From IMG/VR virus record IMGVR_UViG_2778261350_000008, positions 1-12,505 of that record: 12,505 bases of DNA; one strand, written 5' to 3'. The position numbers were made by a program, and so were the translations under genes. Each line of letters starts with the position of its first letter. Positions within the stretch are counted from its first letter, which is position 1. Below, piece after piece: positions 2,640 to 11,816 of the stretch. The DNA comes from a virus (taxonomy: Duplodnaviria; Heunggongvirae; Uroviricota; Caudoviricetes). Below the pieces are notes generated by a model, which searched no databases, was not told the origin of the DNA, and was given only the letters and a program-made list of their open reading frames with translations.

Positions 2640-5600
2640 ATGGGTAAAGGTGGTGGTAAGGCGCATACGCCCCGTGAAGCCAGAGATAATCTGAAATCAT
2701 CCCAGATGCTGAGTGTGATTGATGCCATCAGCGAAGGACCGGTTTACGGGCCTGTTGACGGGCTGAAAAGCGTGTTTCTGAACGGCACGCCGGTACTGGA
2801 CCGTGAGGGGAATGCTAACTTTTCCGGTGTCACTGTGGTGTTCCGTGCCGGTGAACAGGAGCAGACACCACCGGAGGGCTTTGAATCCTCCGGTTCAGAA
2901 ACGGTGCTGGGGACGGAAGTGAAATATGACACGCCGATCACCCGGACCATCACGTCGGCAAATATCGATCGTCTGCGCCTGACCTTCGGCGTGCAGGCAC
3001 TGGTGGAAACCACCTCAAAGGGGGACCGTAACCCCTCTTCTGTCCGCCTGCTGGTTCAGATACAGCGTAACGGTGGCTGGGTGACGGAAAAAGACATCAC
3101 CATTAAGGGCAAAACCACGTCCCAGTATCTGGCCTCGGTGGTGGTGGATAACCTGCCGCCGCGACCGTTCAGTATCCGGATGCGCAGGATGACGCCGGAC
3201 AGCACCACAGACCAGTTACAGAACAAAACGCTCTGGTCGTCATACACTGAAATCATCGATGTGAAACAGTGCTACCCGAACACGGCACTGGTCGGCGTAC
3301 AGGTGGACTCGGAGCAGTTCGGCAGTCAGCAGGTGAGCCGCACTTACCATTTTCGGGGGCGTATTCTGCAGGTGCCGTCGAACTATAACCCGCAGACGCG
3401 GCAGTACAGTGGTATCTGGGACGGAACACTTAAACCGGCATACAGCAACAACCCGGCCTGGTGTCTGTGGGACATGCTGACCCATCCGCGCTACGGCATG
3501 GGGAAACGTCTTGGTGCGGCGGATGTGGACAAATGGGCGCTGTATGTCATCGGCCAGTACTGCGACCAGTCAGTGCCGGACGGCTTTGGTGGCACGGAGC
3601 CGCGCATCACCTGTAATGCCTGGCTGACCACACAGCGTAAGGCGTGGGATGTTCTCAGCGATTTCTGCTCGGCGATGCGCTGTATGCCGGTATGGAACGG
3701 GCAGACGCTGACGTTCGTGCAGGACCGGCCGTCGGATAAGGTGTGGACCTATAACCGAAGTAATGTGGTGATGCCGGATGATGGCGCTCCGTTCCGCTAC
3801 AGCTTCAGCGCCCTGAAGGACCGCCATAATGCCGTTGAGGTGAACTGGAGTGACCCGGATAACGGCCAGGAGACGGCGACAGAGCTTGTGGAGGACACAC
3901 AGGCCATTGCCCGTTACGGTCGTAACGTCACGAAGATGGATGCCTTTGGCTGTACCAGCCGGGGGCAGGCACACCGCGCCGGGCTGTGGCTGATTAAAAC
4001 AGAACTGCTGGAAACGCAGACCGTGGATTTCAGCGTCGGCGCAGAAGGGCTTCGCCATGTACCGGGCGATGTTATTGAAATCTGTGATGATGACTATGCG
4101 GGGATCAGCACCGGTGGTCGTGTGCTGGCGGTGAACAGCCAGACCCGGACGCTGACGCTCGACCGTGAAATCACGCTGCCATCCTCCGGCACCACGCTGA
4201 TAAGCCTGGTTGACGGAAGTGGCAATCCGGTCAGCGTGGAGGTTCAGTCCGTCACCGACGGTGTGAAGGTGAAAGTGAGCCGTGTTCCTGACGGCGTTGC
4301 AGAATACAGCGTGTGGGGGCTGAAGCTGCCGACGCTGCGCCAGCGCCTGTTCCGCTGCGTCAGTATCCGTGAGAACGATGACGGCACGTATGCCATCACC
4401 GCCGTGCAGCATGTACCGGAAAAAGAAGCCATCGTGGATAACGGGGCGCACTTTGACGGTGACCAGAGCGGCACGGTGAATGGTGTCACGCCGCCGGCAG
4501 TGCAGCATCTGACCGCCGAAGTCACCGCAGACAGCGGGGAATACCAGGTGCTGGCGCGATGGGACACGCCGAAGGTGGTGAAGGGTGTGAGCTTCCTGCT
4601 TCGTCTGACCGTGGCAGCGGACGACGGCAGTGAGCGGCTGGTCAGCACAGCCAGGACGACGGAAACCACATACCGCTTCAGGCAGCTGGCGCTGGGGCGT
4701 TACACGCTGACGGTACGGGCGGTAAATGCCCAGGGGCAGCAGGGGGATCCGGCGTCGGTATCGTTCCGGATTGCCGCACCGGCAGCGCCGTCACGGATTG
4801 AGCTGACGCCGGGCTATTTTCAGATAACCGCCACGCCGCATCTTGCGGTTTATGATCCGACGGTACAGTTTGAGTTCTGGTTCTCGGAAAAGCGGATTGC
4901 GGATATCAGGCAGGTTGAAACCACAGCCCGCTATCTTGGCACGGCGCTGTACTGGATAGCTGCCAGTATCAATATCAAACCGGGCCATGATTATTACTTT
5001 TATATCCGCAGTGTGAACACCGTTGGCAAATCGGCATTCGTGGAGGCTGTTGGTCAGCCGAGTGATGATCCATCCGGCTATCTGGATTTTTTCAAAGGAG
5101 AGATAGGGAAAACCCATCTGGCTCAGGAGCTGTGGACGCAGATTGATAACAGTCAGCTTGCGCCTGACCTGGCTGAAATCAGGACGTCCATTACGGGTGT
5201 CAGCAATGAAATCACGCAGACTGTCAATAAGACACTGGAAGACCAGAGTGCAGCGATCCAGCAGATACAGAAGGTTCAGGTTGATACCAGTAATGACCTG
5301 AACAGCATGTGGGCTGTGAAGCTGCAACAGATGAAGGACGGACGCCTTTATATCGCGGGTATTGGTGCCGGTATTGGGAACACCCCCGACGGCATGCAGA
5401 GTCAGGTGCTGCTGGCGGCAGACAGGATTGCGATGATTAATCCTGCAAATGGCAACACAAAGCCGATGTTTGTGGGGCAGGGCGATCAGATATTCATGAA
5501 CGACGTGTTCCTGAAATATCTGACGGCTCCCACCATTACCAGTGGTGGTAATCCTCCGGCATTTTCCCTGACACCGGACGGGCGGCTGACGGCGAAAAAT

Positions 5601-6119
5601 GCGGATATCAGCGGTAACGTGAACGCGAACTCCGGGACGCTCAACAATGTCACGATTAATCAGAACTGCCGGATTCTGGGAAAACTGTCAGCCAATCAGA
5701 TTGAAGGCGATCTCGTTAAAACAGTGGGCAAAGCTTTCCCGCGGGACTCCCGTGCACCGGAGCGGTGGCCATCAGGGACCATTACCGTCAGGATTTATGA
5801 CGATCAGCCGTTTGACCGGCAGATTGTTATTCCGGCGGTGGCTTTCCGCGGTGCCAGACATGAGCGGGAGAATAGCGATACTTATTCGTCATGCCGTCTG
5901 ATAGTGAAGAAAAACGGTGCTGAAATTTATAACCGAACGGCTCTGGATAATACGCTGATTTACACGGGTGTTATTGATATGCCTGCAGGCAGTGGCGTAA
6001 TGACACTGGAGTTTTCTGTATCAGCATGGTGGGTAAATGGCTGGTATCCCACAGCGAGTATCAGCGATTTGCTGGTTGTTGTGATGAAGAAATCCACTGC
6101 AGGCATCACGATTAGCTGA
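2640..6119 (+). CDS. J: Tail tip / host-specificity protein J (central tail fibre)
   Basis: 1159-aa ORF (lambda J is 1132 aa) directly after I. GGAG lies 9 nt upstream of the ATG. Position and size are diagnostic; the divergent C-terminal ~250 aa would be the receptor-binding part. Confidence 0.9.
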
Positions 6120-6186: not shown

Positions 6187-6786
6187 ATGCGTAAAGTTTG
6201 TGCCGCCATTTTGTCCGCTGCCATCTGTCTGGTCGTATCCGGTGCGCCTGCATGGGCGTCTGAGCAGCAGGCCACACTGAGTGCAGGGTATCTTCATGCC
6301 CGGACGAACGCTCCCGGCAGCGATAATCTGAACGGGATTAACGTGAAATACCGTTATGAGTTTACGGACACGCTGGGGCTGATTACGTCCTTCAGTTATG
6401 CCAGTGCCGAAGATGAGCGAAAAACGCACTACAGCGATACCCGCTGGCATGAAGATTCCGTGCGTAACCGCTGGTTCAGCGTGATGGCGGGGCCGTCTGT
6501 GCGCGTGAATGAATGGTTCAGCGCGTATGCGATGGCGGGTATGGCTTACAGCCGGGTGTCGACTTTTTCCGGGGATTATCTCCGCGTAGCTGACAACACG
6601 GGGAAAACGCACGATGTGCTGACCGGAAGTGCTGACGGTCGCCACAGCAACACGTCTCTGGCGTGGGGCGCTGGCGTGCAGTTTAACCCGACCGAATCCG
6701 TGGCCATTGATGTCGCTTATGAAGGTTCCGGCAGTGGCGACTGGCGTACTGACGGTTTCATCGTGGGTGTTGGTTATAAATTCTGA
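6187..6786 (+). CDS. lom: Lom / Ail / PagC-family outer-membrane beta-barrel protein (lysogenic-conversion type)
   Basis: 199 aa. N-terminal signal peptide MRKVCAAILSAAICLVVSGAPAWA. The C-terminus ...VDVAYEGSGSGDWRTDGFIVGVGYKF matches the lambda Lom C-terminus as recalled. GAGAGG RBS; lambda-like position after J. Confidence 0.85.
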   Translation: MRKVCAAILSAAICLVVSGAPAWASEQQATLSAGYLHARTNAPGSDNLNGINVKYRYEFTDTLGLITSFSYASAEDERKTHYSDTRWHEDSVRNRWFSVMAGPSVRVNEWFSAYAMAGMAYSRVSTFSGDYLRVADNTGKTHDVLTGSADGRHSNTSLAWGAGVQFNPTESVAIDVAYEGSGSGDWRTDGFIVGVGYKF

Positions 6787-6845: not shown

Positions 6846-9200
6846 ATGGCAGTAAAGATTTCAGGTGTACTGAAAGATGGTGCAGGTAAGCCGGTACAAA
6901 ACTGCACTATTCAACTGAAAGCCAGACGTAACAGCACCACGGTGGTGGTGAACACGGTGGCCTCAGAAAATCCGGATGAAGCAGGTCGTTACAGCATGGA
7001 TGTTGAGTACGGTCAGTACAGCGTCAGTCTGTTGGTGGAGGGGTTCCCGCCGTCACATGCCGGGACCATCACCGTCTATGAAGATTCCCGACCCGGTACG
7101 CTGAATGATTTTCTCGGTGCCATGACGGAGGATGATGCCCGTCCGGAGGCACTGCGGCGTTTTGAACTGATGGTGGAAGAAGCGGCACGTAACGCTGAAG
7201 CCGCCTCTAAGAGCGCAGCGGCGGCAAAGAAATCCGAAACTGCAGCGGCATCATCGAAGAACGCGGCGAAAACCTCAGAAACGAATGCAGCTAACAGCGC
7301 ACAGGCGGCAGCGACCTCACAGACTGCATCAGCAAACTCCGCGACAGCAGCCAAAAAATCAGAAACCAACGCGAAAAACAGCGAGACAGCCGCAAAGACG
7401 AGTGAAACTAACGCAAAGTCCAGCCAGACGGCAGCGAAGACCAGCGAAACGAATGCCAAAGCCAGTGAAACTGCGGCGAAAAGCAGTCAGGATGCAGCAG
7501 CCGAAAGCGAGAGTGCTGCAGCCGGTTCTGCGACTTCAGCAGCTGGATCAGCAACTGCTGCGGCTAACAGCCAGAAAGCCGCGAAGACGAGCGAAACTAA
7601 CGCAAAGTCCAGCCAGACGGCAGCGAAGACCAGCGAAACGAATGCCAAAGCCAGCGAAACTGCGGCGAAAAACAGTCAGGATGCAGCAGCCCAAAGCGAG
7701 AGTGCCGCAGCTGGTTCTGCAACAGCGGCAGCTAATAGCCAAAAAGCTGCAAAAACCAGTGAAACTAACGCAAAGACGAGTGAAACAAAAGCAGCAGCCA
7801 GCGAGACAGAAGCAACGTCAGCCGCAACAAGAGCAGAGAATGCAGCCCGGATTGCAGAAGATGCCGCTGATCCTGCTTCTGTCCCTCCGCTTCCTGATAT
7901 CTGGCTACCCTTGAATGATTCTCTGGAAGCGATAACAGGGTATGCCCCGGGCTATAAAACAATAACCATCGGCAGTGATGAAATAACAATGCCTGTTAAT
8001 GGCATATGCCAATTTAGCCGGGCTTCATCTGCAACGTATATTGATAAGTCCGGGCATATTACCGTGGCAGGGAATAACGTTCCTCGTTTTGAAAAATATG
8101 GTTTGCTGATAGAGAATCAGCGAACAAACATGTTCGTAAATAGTTTTAATCCTGATGCCTGGAATAAAAGCGGTGGTATATCTGTAACATCATCAACAGA
8201 TGAATTTGAGTTTAAATATGGACGTTTCACGGTAGGAAGCGATATAGCAGGAACGACAACAGGGCGAAATATATGCACAGTTGCTGGTAACAAAGGCATA
8301 GATGTGACTGGCGATGAACAGTACAGTAAAGGTCCGTATGTTACCGCGTCGTTCAGGGTAAGAAGTGATCTCAATGTTCGCGCACGTATCCGTTTTGAAC
8401 GGTATAACTCGGAAGGATACACCTTCCTTTGCGACGCCTATTTGTCATTACAGACCCATGAACTACAAATTACTGGTGGCAATGCCCAGCTATTAACAGC
8501 AAACTTTGAAATCGATCCAGGTAGTGGATGGATATATTTTCAGGCAACACTGAAATGTCTGCCAGAATGGGGAATGGTTGGTACGCAGCTGCAAATTGCA
8601 GCCGACAGAGCAGTGGGGGCTTTTGCAACAGGTGACTGGATAGAAGTAACCACCCCGCAATTCGAGTATGGTGCCTGTGCAACTTCCTTTATCATAACGA
8701 CAACAGAGCCAGCGACTCGTGCATCAGATTTATGTAAATTTCCGCTGATGAAAAATATGTATACCATGCCTTTTACGTTCATGGTGGAAGTCCATAAAAA
8801 CTGGTTTATTTCTCATAATGCTGCACCGCGTGTCATTGATTCAGAAAATCACCAGTCCGGAGGCCCATTTATTATGGGGTTTGGTTCTTCTGGAACTATC
8901 AGTCAGGATGGTTATTCGTATTGCGATATAGGCGGGGCTAACCGGCGTGTATATGAGTCATGCGGAGTAAGAGATCTCGTTATGGGATTCAGGGTTAAGG
9001 CTGACGGCATGACATGCTCATTTGCAAATAAGAATATAAGCACTGAAACCAAAACAGTATGGAAATATATTCGTGAAGCAGCCGTGATTCGTATCGGGGG
9101 GCAAACGACGACAGGATTACGACACCTTAATGGTCATATAAAAAACCTCCGTTTCTGGAACAGAGCATTGTCAGATACGCAGATTAAGGAATACGTATAA
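6846..9200 (+). CDS. stf: Side tail fibre protein, mosaic: lambda Stf-like N-terminus, Ala/Ser/Thr repeat shaft, foreign C-terminal receptor-binding region with a lectin-like (LamG/ConA-type) end
   Basis: N-terminus MAVKISGVLKDGAGKPVQNCTIQLKARRNSTTVVVN...VYEDSRPGTLNDFLGAMTEDDARPEALRRFELMVEE matches lambda Stf as recalled. The ORF track begins at a GTG (6840); the ATG at 6846 gives the lambda-like start. Residues ~120-330 are low-complexity SETNAK-type repeats. From about nt 7880 the DNA is visibly AT-richer, and the protein ends ...LRHLNGHIKNLRFWNRALSDTQIKEYV, which resembles the terminal strand motif of LamG-like jelly-roll domains. Confidence 0.8.
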   Translation: MAVKISGVLKDGAGKPVQNCTIQLKARRNSTTVVVNTVASENPDEAGRYSMDVEYGQYSVSLLVEGFPPSHAGTITVYEDSRPGTLNDFLGAMTEDDARPEALRRFELMVEEAARNAEAASKSAAAAKKSETAAASSKNAAKTSETNAANSAQAAATSQTASANSATAAKKSETNAKNSETAAKTSETNAKSSQTAAKTSETNAKASETAAKSSQDAAAESESAAAGSATSAAGSATAAANSQKAAKTSETNAKSSQTAAKTSETNAKASETAAKNSQDAAAQSESAAAGSATAAANSQKAAKTSETNAKTSETKAAASETEATSAATRAENAARIAEDAADPASVPPLPDIWLPLNDSLEAITGYAPGYKTITIGSDEITMPVNGICQFSRASSATYIDKSGHITVAGNNVPRFEKYGLLIENQRTNMFVNSFNPDAWNKSGGISVTSSTDEFEFKYGRFTVGSDIAGTTTGRNICTVAGNKGIDVTGDEQYSKGPYVTASFRVRSDLNVRARIRFERYNSEGYTFLCDAYLSLQTHELQITGGNAQLLTANFEIDPGSGWIYFQATLKCLPEWGMVGTQLQIAADRAVGAFATGDWIEVTTPQFEYGACATSFIITTTEPATRASDLCKFPLMKNMYTMPFTFMVEVHKNWFISHNAAPRVIDSENHQSGGPFIMGFGSSGTISQDGYSYCDIGGANRRVYESCGVRDLVMGFRVKADGMTCSFANKNISTETKTVWKYIREAAVIRIGGQTTTGLRHLNGHIKNLRFWNRALSDTQIKEYV
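7392..7748. repeat. In-frame tandem duplication inside the stf shaft (two units of about 189 and 168 bp)
   Basis: 7392-7580 and 7581-7748 are near-identical; unit 1 carries an extra 21 bp (7 aa, SAAGSAT). Each encodes AAKTSETNAKSSQTAAKTSETNAKASETAAK(S/N)SQDAAA(E/Q)SESAAAGSAT...AAANSQKA. Shorter, degenerate copies of the same motif flank it from about 7230 to 7800. Confidence 0.7.
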
Positions 9201-9469
9201 TGCGGGATATAACATTACGATTCGATAACAGAGAACAGTTTAACGCAATTGTATATGACAGTGGCCTGTTCAGTCTTGAAGAAGAAAATGGGATTCTTGT
9301 TGATGTTATTGGCGGCATTATTGATTACGAGGAGCCAGAAAACGAAAGATGTACAGGCATTGATCGCGGTGGTTTTTTCGTAAACATGAGGATTGTTGAT
9401 GGCAGTAAAAACATATCTTCTTTAATGCCTTTCATTACGACAGATCAGCATGTAAGGACATGGGCTTAA
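9200..9469 (+). CDS. Hypothetical 89-aa acidic protein, start-coupled to stf (candidate cognate fibre chaperone or accessory protein)
   Basis: Its ATG overlaps the stf stop (TAATG at 9198-9202). AAGGAA lies 8 nt upstream. AT-rich like the stf 3' half. I recognise no homologue. The same frame stays open for 39 codons after its TAA. Confidence 0.45.
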   Translation: MRDITLRFDNREQFNAIVYDSGLFSLEEENGILVDVIGGIIDYEEPENERCTGIDRGGFFVNMRIVDGSKNISSLMPFITTDQHVRTWA

Positions 9470-9593
9470 TGGAGCTTGCTTGTTCAGGTAGCCAGAGAAT
9501 CAGACGACAGAATAACAGCACTGGAAGAAGAAAACGCAGAATTAAGACAAAGATTATCTGCAATTGAGGCGGCGCTTGCGTCTGAATAATATT

Positions 9594-9618
9594 AAGGGGC
9601 CGAGCGCCCCGTTTTATT
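9594..9618 (+). terminator. Terminator-like hairpin ending the stf / small-ORF transcription unit
   Basis: Stem GGGGC (9596-9600) / GCCCC (9606-9610), loop CGAGC, followed by GTTTTATT. Confidence 0.45.
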
Positions 9619-9631
9619 GGGTAGGATGAAA

Positions 9632-9925
9632 ATGGATATAACACCTTTCCTTCATGCACTTTGTGCTGTGGCTGCGCAGGTACTGATTGGCCTTTTTACC
9701 GGAAACTGGGTTTACGGTGCGATAGCTGGTTGTACGTTCTTCATTGCGCGGGAACACACCCAGGCAGAATATTGCTGGATTGAAATGTTCGGGCATGGCA
9801 AGCGAATGAATATGCCGTGGTGGGGCGGTTTTGATCCGCGTGCTTGGGATGTGGCAAGCCTGATGGATTTTGCTGTGCCGGTGGTGGCGTGTCTGCTGGT
9901 CTGGCTGTTGGTTAATCGTGGGTGA
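9632..9925 (+). CDS. Hypothetical small inner-membrane protein with two predicted TM helices (prophage cargo candidate)
   Basis: MDITPFLHALCAVAAQVLIGLFTGNWVYGAIAGCTFFIA...DVASLMDFAVPVVACLLVWLLVNRG: two hydrophobic segments flank a charged, Trp-rich loop (EHTQAEYCWIEMFGHGKRMNMPWWGGFDPRAWD). AGGA lies 6 nt before the ATG at 9632. In-frame alternatives are ATG 9626 and TTG 9617. Codon use looks coding-like. No homologue recognised. Confidence 0.55.
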   Translation: MDITPFLHALCAVAAQVLIGLFTGNWVYGAIAGCTFFIAREHTQAEYCWIEMFGHGKRMNMPWWGGFDPRAWDVASLMDFAVPVVACLLVWLLVNRG

Positions 9926-9935
9926 AAAAAGGTGA

Positions 9936-10057
9936 GCTGTATATGCAACGGAGGAAGAAACCCCGTTGCTGGCGGCATGGAAGAAGTATCGGGTGCTGCT
10001 CAACCGAACTATACATCAGTAGCTCCGGACATTGAGTGGCCTGTACAACCGGAATAA
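9936..10057 (+). pseudogene. tfa: 3' remnant of a lambda-type tail fibre assembly gene (tfa), truncated and frameshifted
   Basis: One frame reads [28 protein letters not shown]. A second frame continues YTSVAPDIEWPVQPE* (ATG-initiated MEEVSGAAQPNYTSVAPDIEWPVQPE at 9977-10057). Together these match the lambda Tfa C-terminus as I recall it (...[36 protein letters not shown]...). No N-terminal portion is present; the segment begins right after the stop of the membrane-protein gene. Confidence 0.6.
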
Positions 10058-10079
10058 ATATCAGGAGGAGTAATTAATC

Positions 10080-11215
10080 GTGTCGACTCTGATTTCCGGC
10101 GTATTAAAAGATGGTGCAGGTATACCGCTGGCTGCCAGATTATCCTGAAATCCCGTGTAAACACCTCAGATGTGGTGATGTCTGTTGTTGCGCATATTGT
10201 AACCGGGCAAAACGGGGAATATGCGTTTGAGGCCCGGACGGGGAAGTACAGCGTTTATCTGAAGACTGACTGGCGTAATGAGTTTCAGGTTGGTGTTATT
10301 TCTGTTTATGAGGACTCACAACCGGGCACACTGAACGACTTCCTGATAGCAGTGAGTGATGCTGATTTGAAGCCGGACGTTCTGCGGCGGTTCGATGAGC
10401 TGGCGAGGCGTGTCCATGAAGACGCGAACAGCGCAGAACAGTTTGCCGGAGATGCCCGTCGTGCTGTGGATGAACTGGGCGGTAAGGTTCAGGACGATAT
10501 TCGTGACCGTACACCGGACCGTCTGGCTCTGCCCGGTGCTTACGGCTTCGGCGGAATATTCAGCCGCTCGGAAGCTCTGTCGTTTCAGGGGGTATCTGAT
10601 TTTGGTGCGTGGCTACAGAAAGCCACGCCGGGGCGTTATCCGGTCACTGTTGCGGATTCTTCTGCATTGCTGTTGGGCACCACGAAATTTAACGGCAACA
10701 TTGATGTGCTGTGGTCACCCTTTGATAACGACGGGTCGGACACAGCGCACAAATTCAAAACGCTGTTGTGTTACAACGAGCCACGTGCCGGAGAGCACGG
10801 GCTACACCTGCTCCAGTACTGGTACGAGGGCGACAACCTGCGGGTTGCGGGCAGTATGATAGTCTGCGACGCTCCGTCGCTGGCGACACTGCTGTCAGCA
10901 ACAGCGGGAGCGGACCCGTCAGGGTTCTACCGTTATCCGGCGGTGGGTTCCCTGTTGCTGGCAGCGTACCACGGGGCATCTGCCGGTGCTGGCGGGGTGA
11001 GTATTGCAACAGGCGACGTTGTTCCGGGCTCCTGTCTGGGGCCGGTGAGTATTCCGTGCGCGGTGAACGAAGGCGGCACAACTCCGTCGCCGCTGCGGGC
11101 GTTTGTTGGTGGTGCCGGACAGTACAATTTCCCCGGACGTTACCAGGCGTTATCCGGTGCAAATAATGTCCGTGGAAACAATGGGTTTATCTGTCTGTTT
11201 GTGCGCGTTGAGTAG
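10080..11215 (+). pseudogene. Second tail fibre gene (Stf N-terminal paralogue), disrupted by a 1-nt frameshift near 10131-10133
   Basis: The GTG at 10080 (GGAGGAG upstream) opens a frame reading VSTLISGVLKDGAGIPLAARLS*, which stops at 10146-10148. The -1 frame continues ...CQIILKSRVNTSDVV and joins the 347-aa ORF 10172..11215. The joined product aligns with the stf N-terminus (ISGVLKDGAG ; C-Q/T-I-x-LK ; VYEDSQPGTLNDFL ; LRRF-EL). The C-terminal part is Gly/Ala-rich and GC-rich. Confidence 0.6.
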
Positions 11216-11222
11216 GTGAGAA

Positions 11223-11816
11223 ATGAACGCAGTAAAAGATATTCGCAATCCGGTGCATCTCGGAAACGGCGCGGTTGACTGTGAGGTGCTGTTTGAGGGG
11301 CGCAGCGAGTACGTTGTTTATACGGCTGCGCCGGGCGACGCAGCCCCGACAGGTCAGCGTATCTGGCAGGAACTACAGAGCGGCAAATGGGGCGAAATTG
11401 CCCCGTTCACGGCCACGCCGGAACTGATAGCGGCGGCGAAGGATGCAAAACGTCAGGAAATTGAGGTGTGGCGTACCGAACAGGAAGCGCAGTCGTTCAC
11501 GTTTGAGTGGAACGGTCGAACCTGGAACGCGGGGCCGTCCTCACTGGCCCGGCTCACGCCTGCGATTACGGCGGCGGAATACGCCGGCGAGCAGGCTGTT
11601 ACCTGGAGCGATACAACCAACGAGCCGGTAAACCTGACAGTGCAGGAACTGAAATCGCTGGCCGTCGCACTGGCTCAGGCACTCTCTGAGCGGAACAACG
11701 CGATTTATCGTCGCCAGCGGGAGATGAAGGATACGTTAAACACCCTGGAGAATCTGGCAGAGGTGCAGGCGTTTAAGGTTGGAGAACAATCTATATTGGG
11801 GGTAAGCCGTATTTAG
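11223..11816 (+). CDS. Putative tail fibre assembly / chaperone protein (assigned by position)
   Basis: 197-aa ORF 8 bp after the stf2 stop, with AGGTGAG RBS. Contains a W-N-G-x-(T/A)-W motif ([11 protein letters not shown]) reminiscent of Tfa proteins (lambda Tfa has WNGTAW), but it lacks the lambda-type Tfa C-terminus seen in the remnant at 9936-10057. Confidence 0.5.

Follow-up and report, generated by a model that had tools for sequence, protein, structure and literature searches.

The DNA downstream of the side tail fibre gene stf in a lambdoid E. coli prophage is very probably a deletion scar, in which a complete small gene now abuts the last codons of a second fibre gene whose body is gone. 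We analysed the locus within a window of 12,505 nucleotides, the whole stretch of viral DNA available (IMG/VR record IMGVR_UViG_2778261350_000008); coordinates are window positions, and the features from stf to the membrane-protein gene lie on the forward strand. A sequence-only reading had seen here a frame of 129 codons interrupted by one stop codon and had taken it either for an 89-aa protein followed by a coupled micro-ORF or for a protein of ~129 aa, ending in a coiled coil, that a nonsense change or sequencing error had split. An in-frame run past a stop, with a convincing coil, invites calls of an interrupted gene, of readthrough or of an error; a 933-bp deletion explains all of these features, and recognizing it spares the annotation a spurious 129-aa gene and a spurious micro-ORF. 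The lesion is an ordinary prophage deletion scar, and the pseudogene status of the 3' relic is already present in public annotation.

The gene stf (6846-9200), placed from the ORF list and its start region, encodes 784 aa from the ATG at 6846. The protein comprises a phage_tail_N attachment domain, a shaft rich in Ala, Ser and Thr, and a C-terminal module of ~330 aa ending in ...IRIGGQTTTGLRHLNGHIKNLRFWNRALSDTQIKEYV. It matches Pfam PF08400 (E 3.7e-70) and, at full length, phrog_1419, with a further match to NCBIfam GTA_spike_fiber at residues 423-628. The C-terminal 330 aa share 38-50% identity with fibres of phage 21, Tritos, IrisVonRoten, KarlBarth and JeffSchatz (49.7% with IrisVonRoten Gp22); this fibre type's conserved C-terminal module is galectin-like according to the BASEL collection paper. 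The stf stop codon overlaps the ATG of the next ORF in a TAATG at 9198-9202, as had been reported, and this overlap implies translational coupling of the small gene to stf.

The downstream ORF, at 9200-9469, was confirmed to encode 89 aa, and RefSeq places WP_021549949.1, a 'hypothetical protein', at identical coordinates. It belongs to phrog_1361, a family of unknown function (E 1.2e-29; residues 1-89 against profile positions 1-92 of 92). The C-terminus, RTWA followed by the stop, agrees with the RxW[A/M/S]-stop that ends the family alignment and is kept across lambdoid, T5-like, Dhillonvirus and other relatives. Although the window protein is divergent, with about 30-34% identity to most other members, and three residues shorter, it shares its position, the overlap with the fibre stop and the RxW[A/M/S] end with CPT_21_23 of phage 21, bas32_0023 of IrisVonRoten and TRITO_20 of Tritos. 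By comparison with these sequences, the 89-aa ORF is a complete, intact and real gene.

Past the TAA at 9467-9469, the same frame does stay open for 39 codons, encoding WSLLVQVARESDDRITALEEENAELRQRLSAIEAALASE, as far as the TAA at 9587-9589. An open stretch of this length is not unusual in the window, where, over all six frames, 21% of the intervals between stops reach 39 codons or more, against 17% predicted by base composition. Its heptad-like, coiled-coil appearance nevertheless reflects authentic coding sequence that was orphaned only recently; the segment belongs to the 3' end of a 346-aa fibre gene and not to the 89-aa protein. A single ~129-aa protein with a C-terminal coil, broken by a nonsense mutation or sequencing error at 9467-9469, has practically no chance of being correct, even though the frame is continuous but for one TAA and the downstream segment resembles real coding sequence. 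The sequence-only reading had proposed codon 90 in relatives as a check and had named a consistent end at this TAA as grounds for rejection; all homologues of the 89-aa protein terminate at this position, with 117 of the 120 in a profile-retrieved set being 92-94 aa long and ending in LRxW[M/S/A], and with the phrog_1361 profile covered to its last position. The downstream codons are the C-terminus of a distinct protein, and in the intact parents a 13-nt spacer and 308 codons separate the two parts. Likewise for readthrough, the sequence past the small gene in relatives is a spacer and the start of a separate gene, or another gene, with no conserved continuation. The interrupted frame reflects a deletion allele and not a sequencing error: a stretch of 601 bases, TAA included, recurs at 99.8-100% identity in eight complete E. 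coli genomes of independent assembly, FDAARGOS_1295 among them, and one IMG/VR contig carries the same junction and TAA.

Comparison with phages located the junction. In blastn, similarity splits at window position 9474: sequence to the left matches stf and the small gene of PhiR11_1, PhiR47_1 and PhiR55_1 at 98-99%, and sequence to the right, at 96-98%, the 3' end of a gene for a 'tail fiber protein' in Tritos, HannyBb, 2G7b and PhiR46_1. Aligned base by base with PhiR11_1, whose flanks are 96-99% identical to the window and not 100%, the left flank matches up to 9474 and the right flank from 9474, with 933 bp absent between them; the deletion junction is at 9474/9475, with a microhomology of one nucleotide (G9474). 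In the intact order, found in PhiR11_1, PhiR46_1 and Tritos, stf is followed by a phrog_1361 gene of ~90 aa, a second fibre of 346 aa, a terminator and a small membrane-protein gene. The second fibre begins with MVTKTVIPxDIxxLK and carries a C-terminal Peptidase_S74 domain, a self-cleaving intramolecular chaperone (PF13884, residues 227-278, E 2.7e-13). The intact parent reads TAATGGAGTAAGACAATGG, with a GGAG 7 nt before the ATG of this gene, and the GGAG survives in the window at 9471-9474 as an orphaned ribosome-binding site.

We propose that illegitimate recombination with 1 nt of microhomology removed 933 bp, from 6 nt past the stop of the small gene through codon 308 of the second fibre gene. 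Left behind are the second gene's ribosome-binding site without its start codon, its last 38 codons, its stop and the terminator. Since the two parental genes had a common reading frame and 933 is divisible by three, the relic lies in frame with the 89-aa gene, where it mimics a C-terminal coiled coil severed by a stop. The prophage would thereby keep Stf and the small protein and lose the second, distal fibre. The junction could instead have come from a module exchange between two phages, one supplying stf and the small gene and the other the relic, terminator and membrane gene, and we regard this as unlikely. The latter three do occur as a unit in an unrelated P22-like phage whose breakpoint differs, and the best relatives of the two flanks differ slightly, but in PhiR11_1 and many prophages the two flanks stand in this order and orientation on either side of precisely the gene that the window lacks, which makes a single deletion the simpler history. 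Under either deletion or exchange the 39 codons are a relic, and the verdict on them is unchanged.

The intact state is the norm and the deletion allele is rare. Among complete E. coli genomes, 88 have the intact junction and 8 the deletion junction, and the corresponding counts among IMG/VR contigs are 27 and 1. The second gene is full in 25 of 25 readable intact IMG/VR loci, with a length of 346 aa (n = 14), 227 aa (n = 9), 234 aa (n = 1) or 363 aa (n = 1).

The relic proper (9475-9589) comprises the last 38 codons and the stop of the 346-aa second fibre gene, with no start codon and the catalytic part gone. Its peptide aligns with positions 309-345 of 346 in phrog_4563 'tail fiber protein' (E 8.3e-16), and 37 of its 38 residues are identical to the C-termini in PhiR11_1 and Tritos; they correspond to the C-terminal helix of the intramolecular chaperone region. 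The relic by itself does not match PF13884, the parent domain (227-278) being upstream of the retained residues 309-346, and the cleavage motif S-D-x-x-x-K (TSDRDLKDNI) present in the parent falls inside the 933 bp missing from the window. RefSeq annotates 9476-9589 as a pseudogene, 'tail fiber domain-containing protein, missing N-terminus'. The coil does come from a chaperone, in the form of the self-cleaving intramolecular domain, but this domain served the deleted second fibre and not Stf. The relic and its intact copies differ at 2-5 positions, and the scar is young. Most likely the relic is not translated: the stop context is UAAU, and the sole in-frame start candidate is a TTG only 1 nt past the GGAG. 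A low level of termination-reinitiation at the ATG of 9469, or of leaky readthrough, may nonetheless occur; that termination-reinitiation at the TAATG of 9467-9471 now yields a new basic peptide of 32 aa from the relic is less likely than the proposal for phrog_1361 considered below.

This second TAATG was confirmed, as was the ORF that it opens, a basic micro-ORF of 32 aa (MELACSGSQRIRRQNNSTGRRKRRIKTKIICN) running from the ATG at 9469 to 9567. The overlap of its ATG with the stop of the 89-aa gene is a geometry that permits termination-reinitiation, yet a genuine gene translationally coupled in this way is extremely improbable. Only the rare deletion allele contains the micro-ORF: the corresponding ATG of the intact PhiR11_1 and PhiR55_1 begins the two-codon ORF ATG GAG TAA, and Tritos has no TAATG at that site, its small gene terminating in TGA. 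Of the six sites that vary in the relic region, four fall at third positions of the fibre frame and at first positions of the micro-ORF frame, and no family match was found for the micro-ORF. Its basic composition arises because a GAA/AGA-rich, coil-coding stretch is read out of frame. Of the pairing first offered, then, the 89-aa ORF stands as a real gene, whereas the micro-ORF is an unconserved by-product of the deletion and not a conserved coupled gene.

Downstream of the relic, a scan confirmed a GC hairpin (GGGGC-CGAGC-GCCCC) at 9596-9610 and the T-run after it, together a terminator-like element (9596-9617) that once closed the 3' end of the gene now deleted. With a fold of -11.7 kcal/mol (z -0.79 against shuffles), its energy is not unusual, and we read it as a terminator because of its form and conserved position, not its folding energy; an identical sequence lies just downstream of the 346-aa gene where that gene is intact, in PhiR11_1, Tritos and PhiR46_1. 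The next intact gene (9632-9925), a RefSeq CDS matching phrog_1443 (E 1.9e-57), encodes a small membrane protein of unknown function whose phage 21 counterpart is annotated 'putative membrane protein, 2 TMDs'. Rfam, searched over 9000-10300, gave no match within the range of the scar.

Two independent truncations, one in the window and one in phage vB_EcoP-611R6, keep the 3' end along with both terminator and membrane gene, as might be expected if the relic were retained for a function of its own, either as a promoter or regulatory element for the membrane-protein gene or as a source of a 37-aa coil peptide initiated at TTG 9476. We consider such a function very unlikely. A scan of 9470-9630 found no sigma-70-like promoter, and TTG 9476 lies only 1 nt from the GGAG, a spacing from the Shine-Dalgarno sequence that is too close for initiation. 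In phage 21 and many lambdoid phages, moreover, this membrane gene is expressed from a place right after the small gene, with no relic between the two. Under the deletion reading, the relic is still there because the scar is young.

What remains intact at the locus deserves attention in its own right. In eight of eight phages compared, drawn from five groups, a phrog_1361 gene comes directly after, and overlaps the stop codon of, a fibre gene whose product has homologous last 330 aa, and the conserved C-terminal module of these fibres reads ...IRIGGQTxTGxRHLxGHIxNxRxW...; the gene after phrog_1361 varies among the eight and is absent altogether in phage 21. This fixed place behind one fibre type makes a fibre-accessory role plausible. 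With conserved gene order as the sole basis, we infer that the 89-aa protein may be an accessory partner of the fibre C-terminal module, acting in assembly or as a small subunit of structural or adaptor type. More tentatively, and with a little less than an even chance, phrog_1361 could represent an undescribed class of fibre-accessory proteins dedicated to the lectin-like C-terminal module, acting as an assembly chaperone or as a small adaptor onto which distal fibres bearing the MVTKTVIP N-terminus would dock. The lectin-like module concerned is common to the side or lateral fibres of lambdoid, T1-like, Dhillonvirus, T5-like and rV5-like phages. If that reading is true, the window would offer a natural 'distal fibre minus, accessory plus' genotype. 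A widespread, uncharacterised protein of ~90 aa, tied to one type of fibre C-terminus in five phage groups, is a reasonable experimental target.

The 89-aa protein matched no Pfam family at E <= 0.1, no NCBIfam family at E <= 0.01 and no Caudo_TAP/DUF4376 or related tail-fibre assembly model. A PDB sequence search returned nothing for it or for the 346-aa parent, and structure prediction gives the 89-aa protein a small alpha+beta domain of generic type. Used as a single query against a collection of 5.8 billion proteins, it retrieved four fragments only, and the family was retrieved with a profile built from seven diverse members; similarly, tblastn found only four near-identical phage copies with the window protein as query and 181 records with the Tritos homologue. 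An exhaustive search of cluster representatives gave eight matches, several of them to giant Ig-like, cadherin or HYR repeat proteins that aligned in multiple stretches and were taken as compositional or beta-strand noise. A 246-aa 'fusion' (P0005) proved to be a frameshift-riddled translation of the same locus. A literature search found no study of the phrog_1361 small protein; the DT57C and BASEL papers cover two-part fibres, not this gene.

Among known systems, the tail-fibre assembly proteins (lambda Tfa, Mu U and P2 G; Caudo_TAP/DUF4376) have the kind of role that the sequence-only reading put forward as possible for the 89-aa protein. They share with the 89-aa protein a place directly downstream of a fibre gene, but the latter has no sequence match to them and is half their size. 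A real Tfa-like gene (DUF4376) occurs elsewhere in the window, at 11223-11816. The deleted 346-aa parent resembles the Peptidase_S74 fibres and spikes, such as the T5 L-shaped fibre pb1, the K1F endosialidase, DT57C LtfA/LtfB and IrisVonRoten Gp24, in having both PF13884 and the Ser-Asp-x-x-x-Lys motif; this intramolecular chaperone domain has been described previously (PMC4728585, PMC11990801). The window relic, by contrast, keeps only the last 38 codons, without the start, the fibre body or the catalytic motif, and is a pseudogene fragment, not a member of this group.

The parental arrangement is also like the two-part or branched lateral fibres of T5-like phages, formed by LtfA and LtfB in DT57C and by a proximal Gp22 and a T-shaped distal Gp24 in IrisVonRoten (PMC4728585, PMC10713586, PMC11990801). 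In IrisVonRoten, the proximal fibre has a C-terminal galectin-like domain and the attached distal fibre carries the intramolecular chaperone domain (PMC11990801). In the parental arrangement, as in these fibres, a tail-anchored proximal fibre precedes a second one that has an intramolecular chaperone domain but no tail-attachment domain; in the window, however, the distal partner is lost. DT57C differs in that LtfA has a chaperone domain of its own and that LtfA and LtfB are numbered as consecutive genes. Loss of the distal fibre of a two-part side tail fibre in a prophage lineage would be expected to narrow or change its receptor range. Laboratory lambda PaPa lost its side tail fibres through a frameshift in stf (Hendrix & Duda 1992, as cited in PMC11990801). 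In both, a simple mutation deprived a lambdoid phage of some of its side-fibre apparatus and left the rest of the phage intact, but the lesion in the window is a 933-bp deletion of a second fibre gene, occurs in natural isolates and leaves stf intact.

The window, which forms the tail end of a lambdoid prophage of E. coli, carries J (2640-6119), lom (6187-6786), stf (6846-9200) and, 3′ of the locus studied here, a small membrane-protein gene (9632-9925); it is 99.97-100% identical to prophages of several complete E. coli genomes. The stf gene is joined to an 89-aa ORF (9200-9469) by TAATG at 9198-9202, and a second TAATG at 9467-9471 opens a 32-aa basic ORF (9469-9567), with exactly the sequence originally reported. 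The 89-aa frame stays open for 39 codons past its TAA, closing at 9587-9589; just beyond it, at 9596-9617, stands a GC hairpin with a T-run. Length alone does not make this open stretch rare, as intervals of at least 39 codons account for 21% of the stop-to-stop intervals in the window. The sequence-only reading of these features holds as observation and, in part, as interpretation, with a real, fibre-linked 89-aa gene; neither a split 129-aa protein nor a conserved micro-ORF is present.

By blastn of positions 9100-9700 against phage genomes, similarity was found to break sharply at 9474. Left of this point, stf and the small gene of PhiR11_1, PhiR47_1 and PhiR55_1 are 98-99% identical to the window; on the right, the counterpart is the 3′ end of a 'tail fiber protein' gene of Tritos, HannyBb, 2G7b and PhiR46_1, at 96-98%. 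The gene order in the matching phages is stf, small gene (89-93 aa), second fibre gene (346 aa long; PhiR55_1 has a 227-aa version) and membrane-protein gene. In a base-by-base comparison with PhiR11_1, a 933-bp segment, which in close relatives holds the second fibre gene, is absent from the window, with the left flank matching to 9474, the right flank from 9474, and one G shared. At the left edge of the missing segment (slash) the parental sequence is ...TGGGCTTAATGGAG/TAAGACAATGGTT..., at the right edge it is ...GTTACTGG/CTTGCTTGTTCAGG..., and across the junction the window has ...TGGGCTTAATGGAGCTTGCTTGTTCAGG.... By this comparison, the deletion took the start codon and first 308 codons of the second fibre gene, leaving its GGAG ribosome-binding site (9471-9474), last 38 codons, stop and terminator. 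In RefSeq (PGAP), positions 9476-9589 have a pseudogene call ('tail fiber domain-containing protein; incomplete; missing N-terminus'), and the locus is an ordinary deletion scar, already annotated.

The retained peptide (9475-9589) matches positions 309-345 of the 346 in phrog_4563 ('tail fiber protein'; E 8.3e-16) and shares 37 of 38 residues with the C-terminus of the parent. In the 346-aa parental protein, residues 227-278 match Pfam PF13884 (Peptidase_S74, 'chaperone of endosialidase'), and the motif TSDRDLKDNI is present. Given this domain and the match to the parental C-terminus, the heptad-like segment noted at the outset is the last helix of an intramolecular chaperone region of the self-cleaving type, orphaned without its catalytic part. 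Its continuity with the 89-aa frame is coincidental, because the parental small and second fibre genes, whose starts are separated by 282 nt, share a frame and 933 is a multiple of three. The same relic, terminator and membrane-protein gene occur 3′ of an O-acetylase gene in Escherichia phage vB_EcoP-611R6, a P22-like Lederbergvirus (L010, 1450-1950), where the breakpoint lies ~45 nt further upstream than that of the window, marking it as an independent truncation. The membrane-protein gene and upstream relic seem to travel between phage types as a cassette. On the minus strand of IMGVR_UViG_2585427745_000003, which carries a 363-aa distal fibre gene, the sequence diverges within the same terminal coil (...LSAIEGKRKLTAV...), and this departure point is another rearrangement breakpoint within that short stretch.

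A sequencing error had been considered as a source of the interrupted frame. Of 5426 complete E. coli genomes, 8 share the deletion junction (human, armadillo and beluga isolates), as does one IMG/VR contig; the intact junction is found in 88 complete E. coli genomes and in 27 contigs of IMG/VR. A full second gene is present in each of the 25 readable IMG/VR loci of the intact type (14 of 346 aa, nine of 227 aa, one of 234 aa and one of 363 aa). The relic is undecayed: 2-5 positions separate it from intact copies, and over its length the deletion allele of the IMG/VR contig is identical to the window. Recurrence of the junction and the undecayed relic show the scar to be recent and heritable, not an assembly error. 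Between the window and that IMG/VR contig (L013), 59 of 63 differences fall within 1 kb of J (3959-4961), a recombinant patch in the central tail-fibre gene, with the stf region nearly identical.

The 32-aa ORF had been put forward, in one of two readings, as a coupled micro-ORF. In PhiR11_1 (locus L002, 3368-3385), and at the same positions in PhiR55_1, the same ATG reads ATG GAG TAA, a two-codon ORF that overlaps the small-gene stop and includes the GGAG that serves the distal fibre gene as ribosome-binding site; the Tritos small gene has TGA as its stop, with no TAATG. The micro-ORF owes its existence solely to the deletion, which placed coil-coding DNA behind the ATG at 9469, and its Arg/Lys richness reflects a GAA/AGA-rich coil read out of frame. 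Relatives vary at six sites of the relic region, four of which are third positions in the fibre frame and first positions in the micro-ORF frame.

The 89-aa protein aligns end to end with phrog_1361 (profile positions 1-92 of 92). All diverse members aligned, including phage 21, Tritos, T5-like IrisVonRoten and Dhillonvirus KarlBarth, end in RxW[A/M/S]-stop, as does the window (RTWA), and 117 of 120 database homologues are 92-94 aa long. Homologues that end at the same point, the pattern named beforehand as refuting a 129-aa protein, are what we found, and the 89-aa gene is complete. We compared fibre C-termini among lambdoid (window, PhiR11_1, PhiR55_1, Tritos, phage 21), T5-like, Dhillonvirus and rV5-like phages, and T1-like phages by tblastn. 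In every phage compared, the small gene lies 3′ of a fibre with homologous last 330 aa (38-68% identity) and a shared motif, IRIGGQTxTGxRHLxGHIxNxRxW, whereas the gene 3′ of it is variable, and absent in phage 21; this constancy ties the small protein to the fibre C-terminal module rather than to the distal fibre. A conserved two-gene module, a ~330-aa fibre C-terminal domain and a ~90-aa phrog_1361 protein whose start overlaps the fibre stop, spans 8211-9469 (also in related loci L002, L003, L006, L007, L008 and L009) and is common to lambdoid, T1-like, Dhillonvirus, T5-like and rV5-like phages. Distal fibres 3′ of it, where present, often begin MVTKTVIPxDIxxLK. The IrisVonRoten homologue of the C-terminal module has been described as galectin-like (PMC11990801).

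The 89-aa protein had no match in Pfam, NCBIfam or PDB. Its AlphaFold model, of moderate confidence, is a small alpha+beta domain with generic or uncharacterised structural neighbours. A search of cluster representatives gave multi-stretch matches (E down to 6e-14) to giant Ig-like/cadherin/HYR repeat proteins (P0006, P0008, P0009, P0010), which probably reflect compositional or beta-strand similarity; a distant link to Ig-like repeat domains is conceivable. We propose an accessory role, as an assembly factor or small structural adaptor.

The Ala/Ser/Thr-rich stf shaft holds a tandem duplication at 7377-7793 (period 189 bp, ~2 copies, 84-94% identical) with 42-bp and 21-bp sub-repeats, a stretch that phage 21 Stf lacks. 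On identical prophages, RefSeq renders the 784-aa stf ORF as two 'incomplete' pseudogene pieces or just an internal 403-aa product (L004, 1247-3601; L005, 390-1601); as the frame is open over its full length in the window, this splitting is probably an annotation artefact of repetitive shaft and mosaic domains. Older fibre leftovers accumulate 3′ of the membrane-protein gene (9945-11816): a frameshifted tail-fibre-assembly fragment (9945-10057, RefSeq), an N-terminally truncated second stf-like gene (10172-11215; phage_tail_N matched from profile position 34 onwards) and a DUF4376 Tfa-like gene (11223-11816), followed by ykgJ-like and dinI-like genes adjoining the integrase end. A partial, sub-threshold Rfam match to IS009 (RF02111) at 9923-10020 (49.4 bits, gathering score 117; E 5.5e-10), immediately 3′ of the membrane-protein gene, spans both model ends at only half the model length.

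The stop codon of the 89-aa gene stands in a UAAU context, which favours strong termination in E. coli, and the only in-frame start candidate for the relic, TTG at 9476, lies 1 nt from the GGAG; for both reasons the relic is presumably untranslated. The prophage would still make Stf and the small protein, without a distal fibre. The 89-aa protein lies outside the Tfa-type assembly families, belonging instead to phrog_1361. The parental second gene belongs to the Peptidase_S74 fibre class; the window fragment is descended from it but retains none of the functional features of the class. The overall parental layout is similar to that of the two-part lateral fibres in DT57C and IrisVonRoten; in the T5-like relatives, the proximal fibre is presumed to carry the distal one suspended from it (PMC4728585; PMC10713586; PMC11990801).
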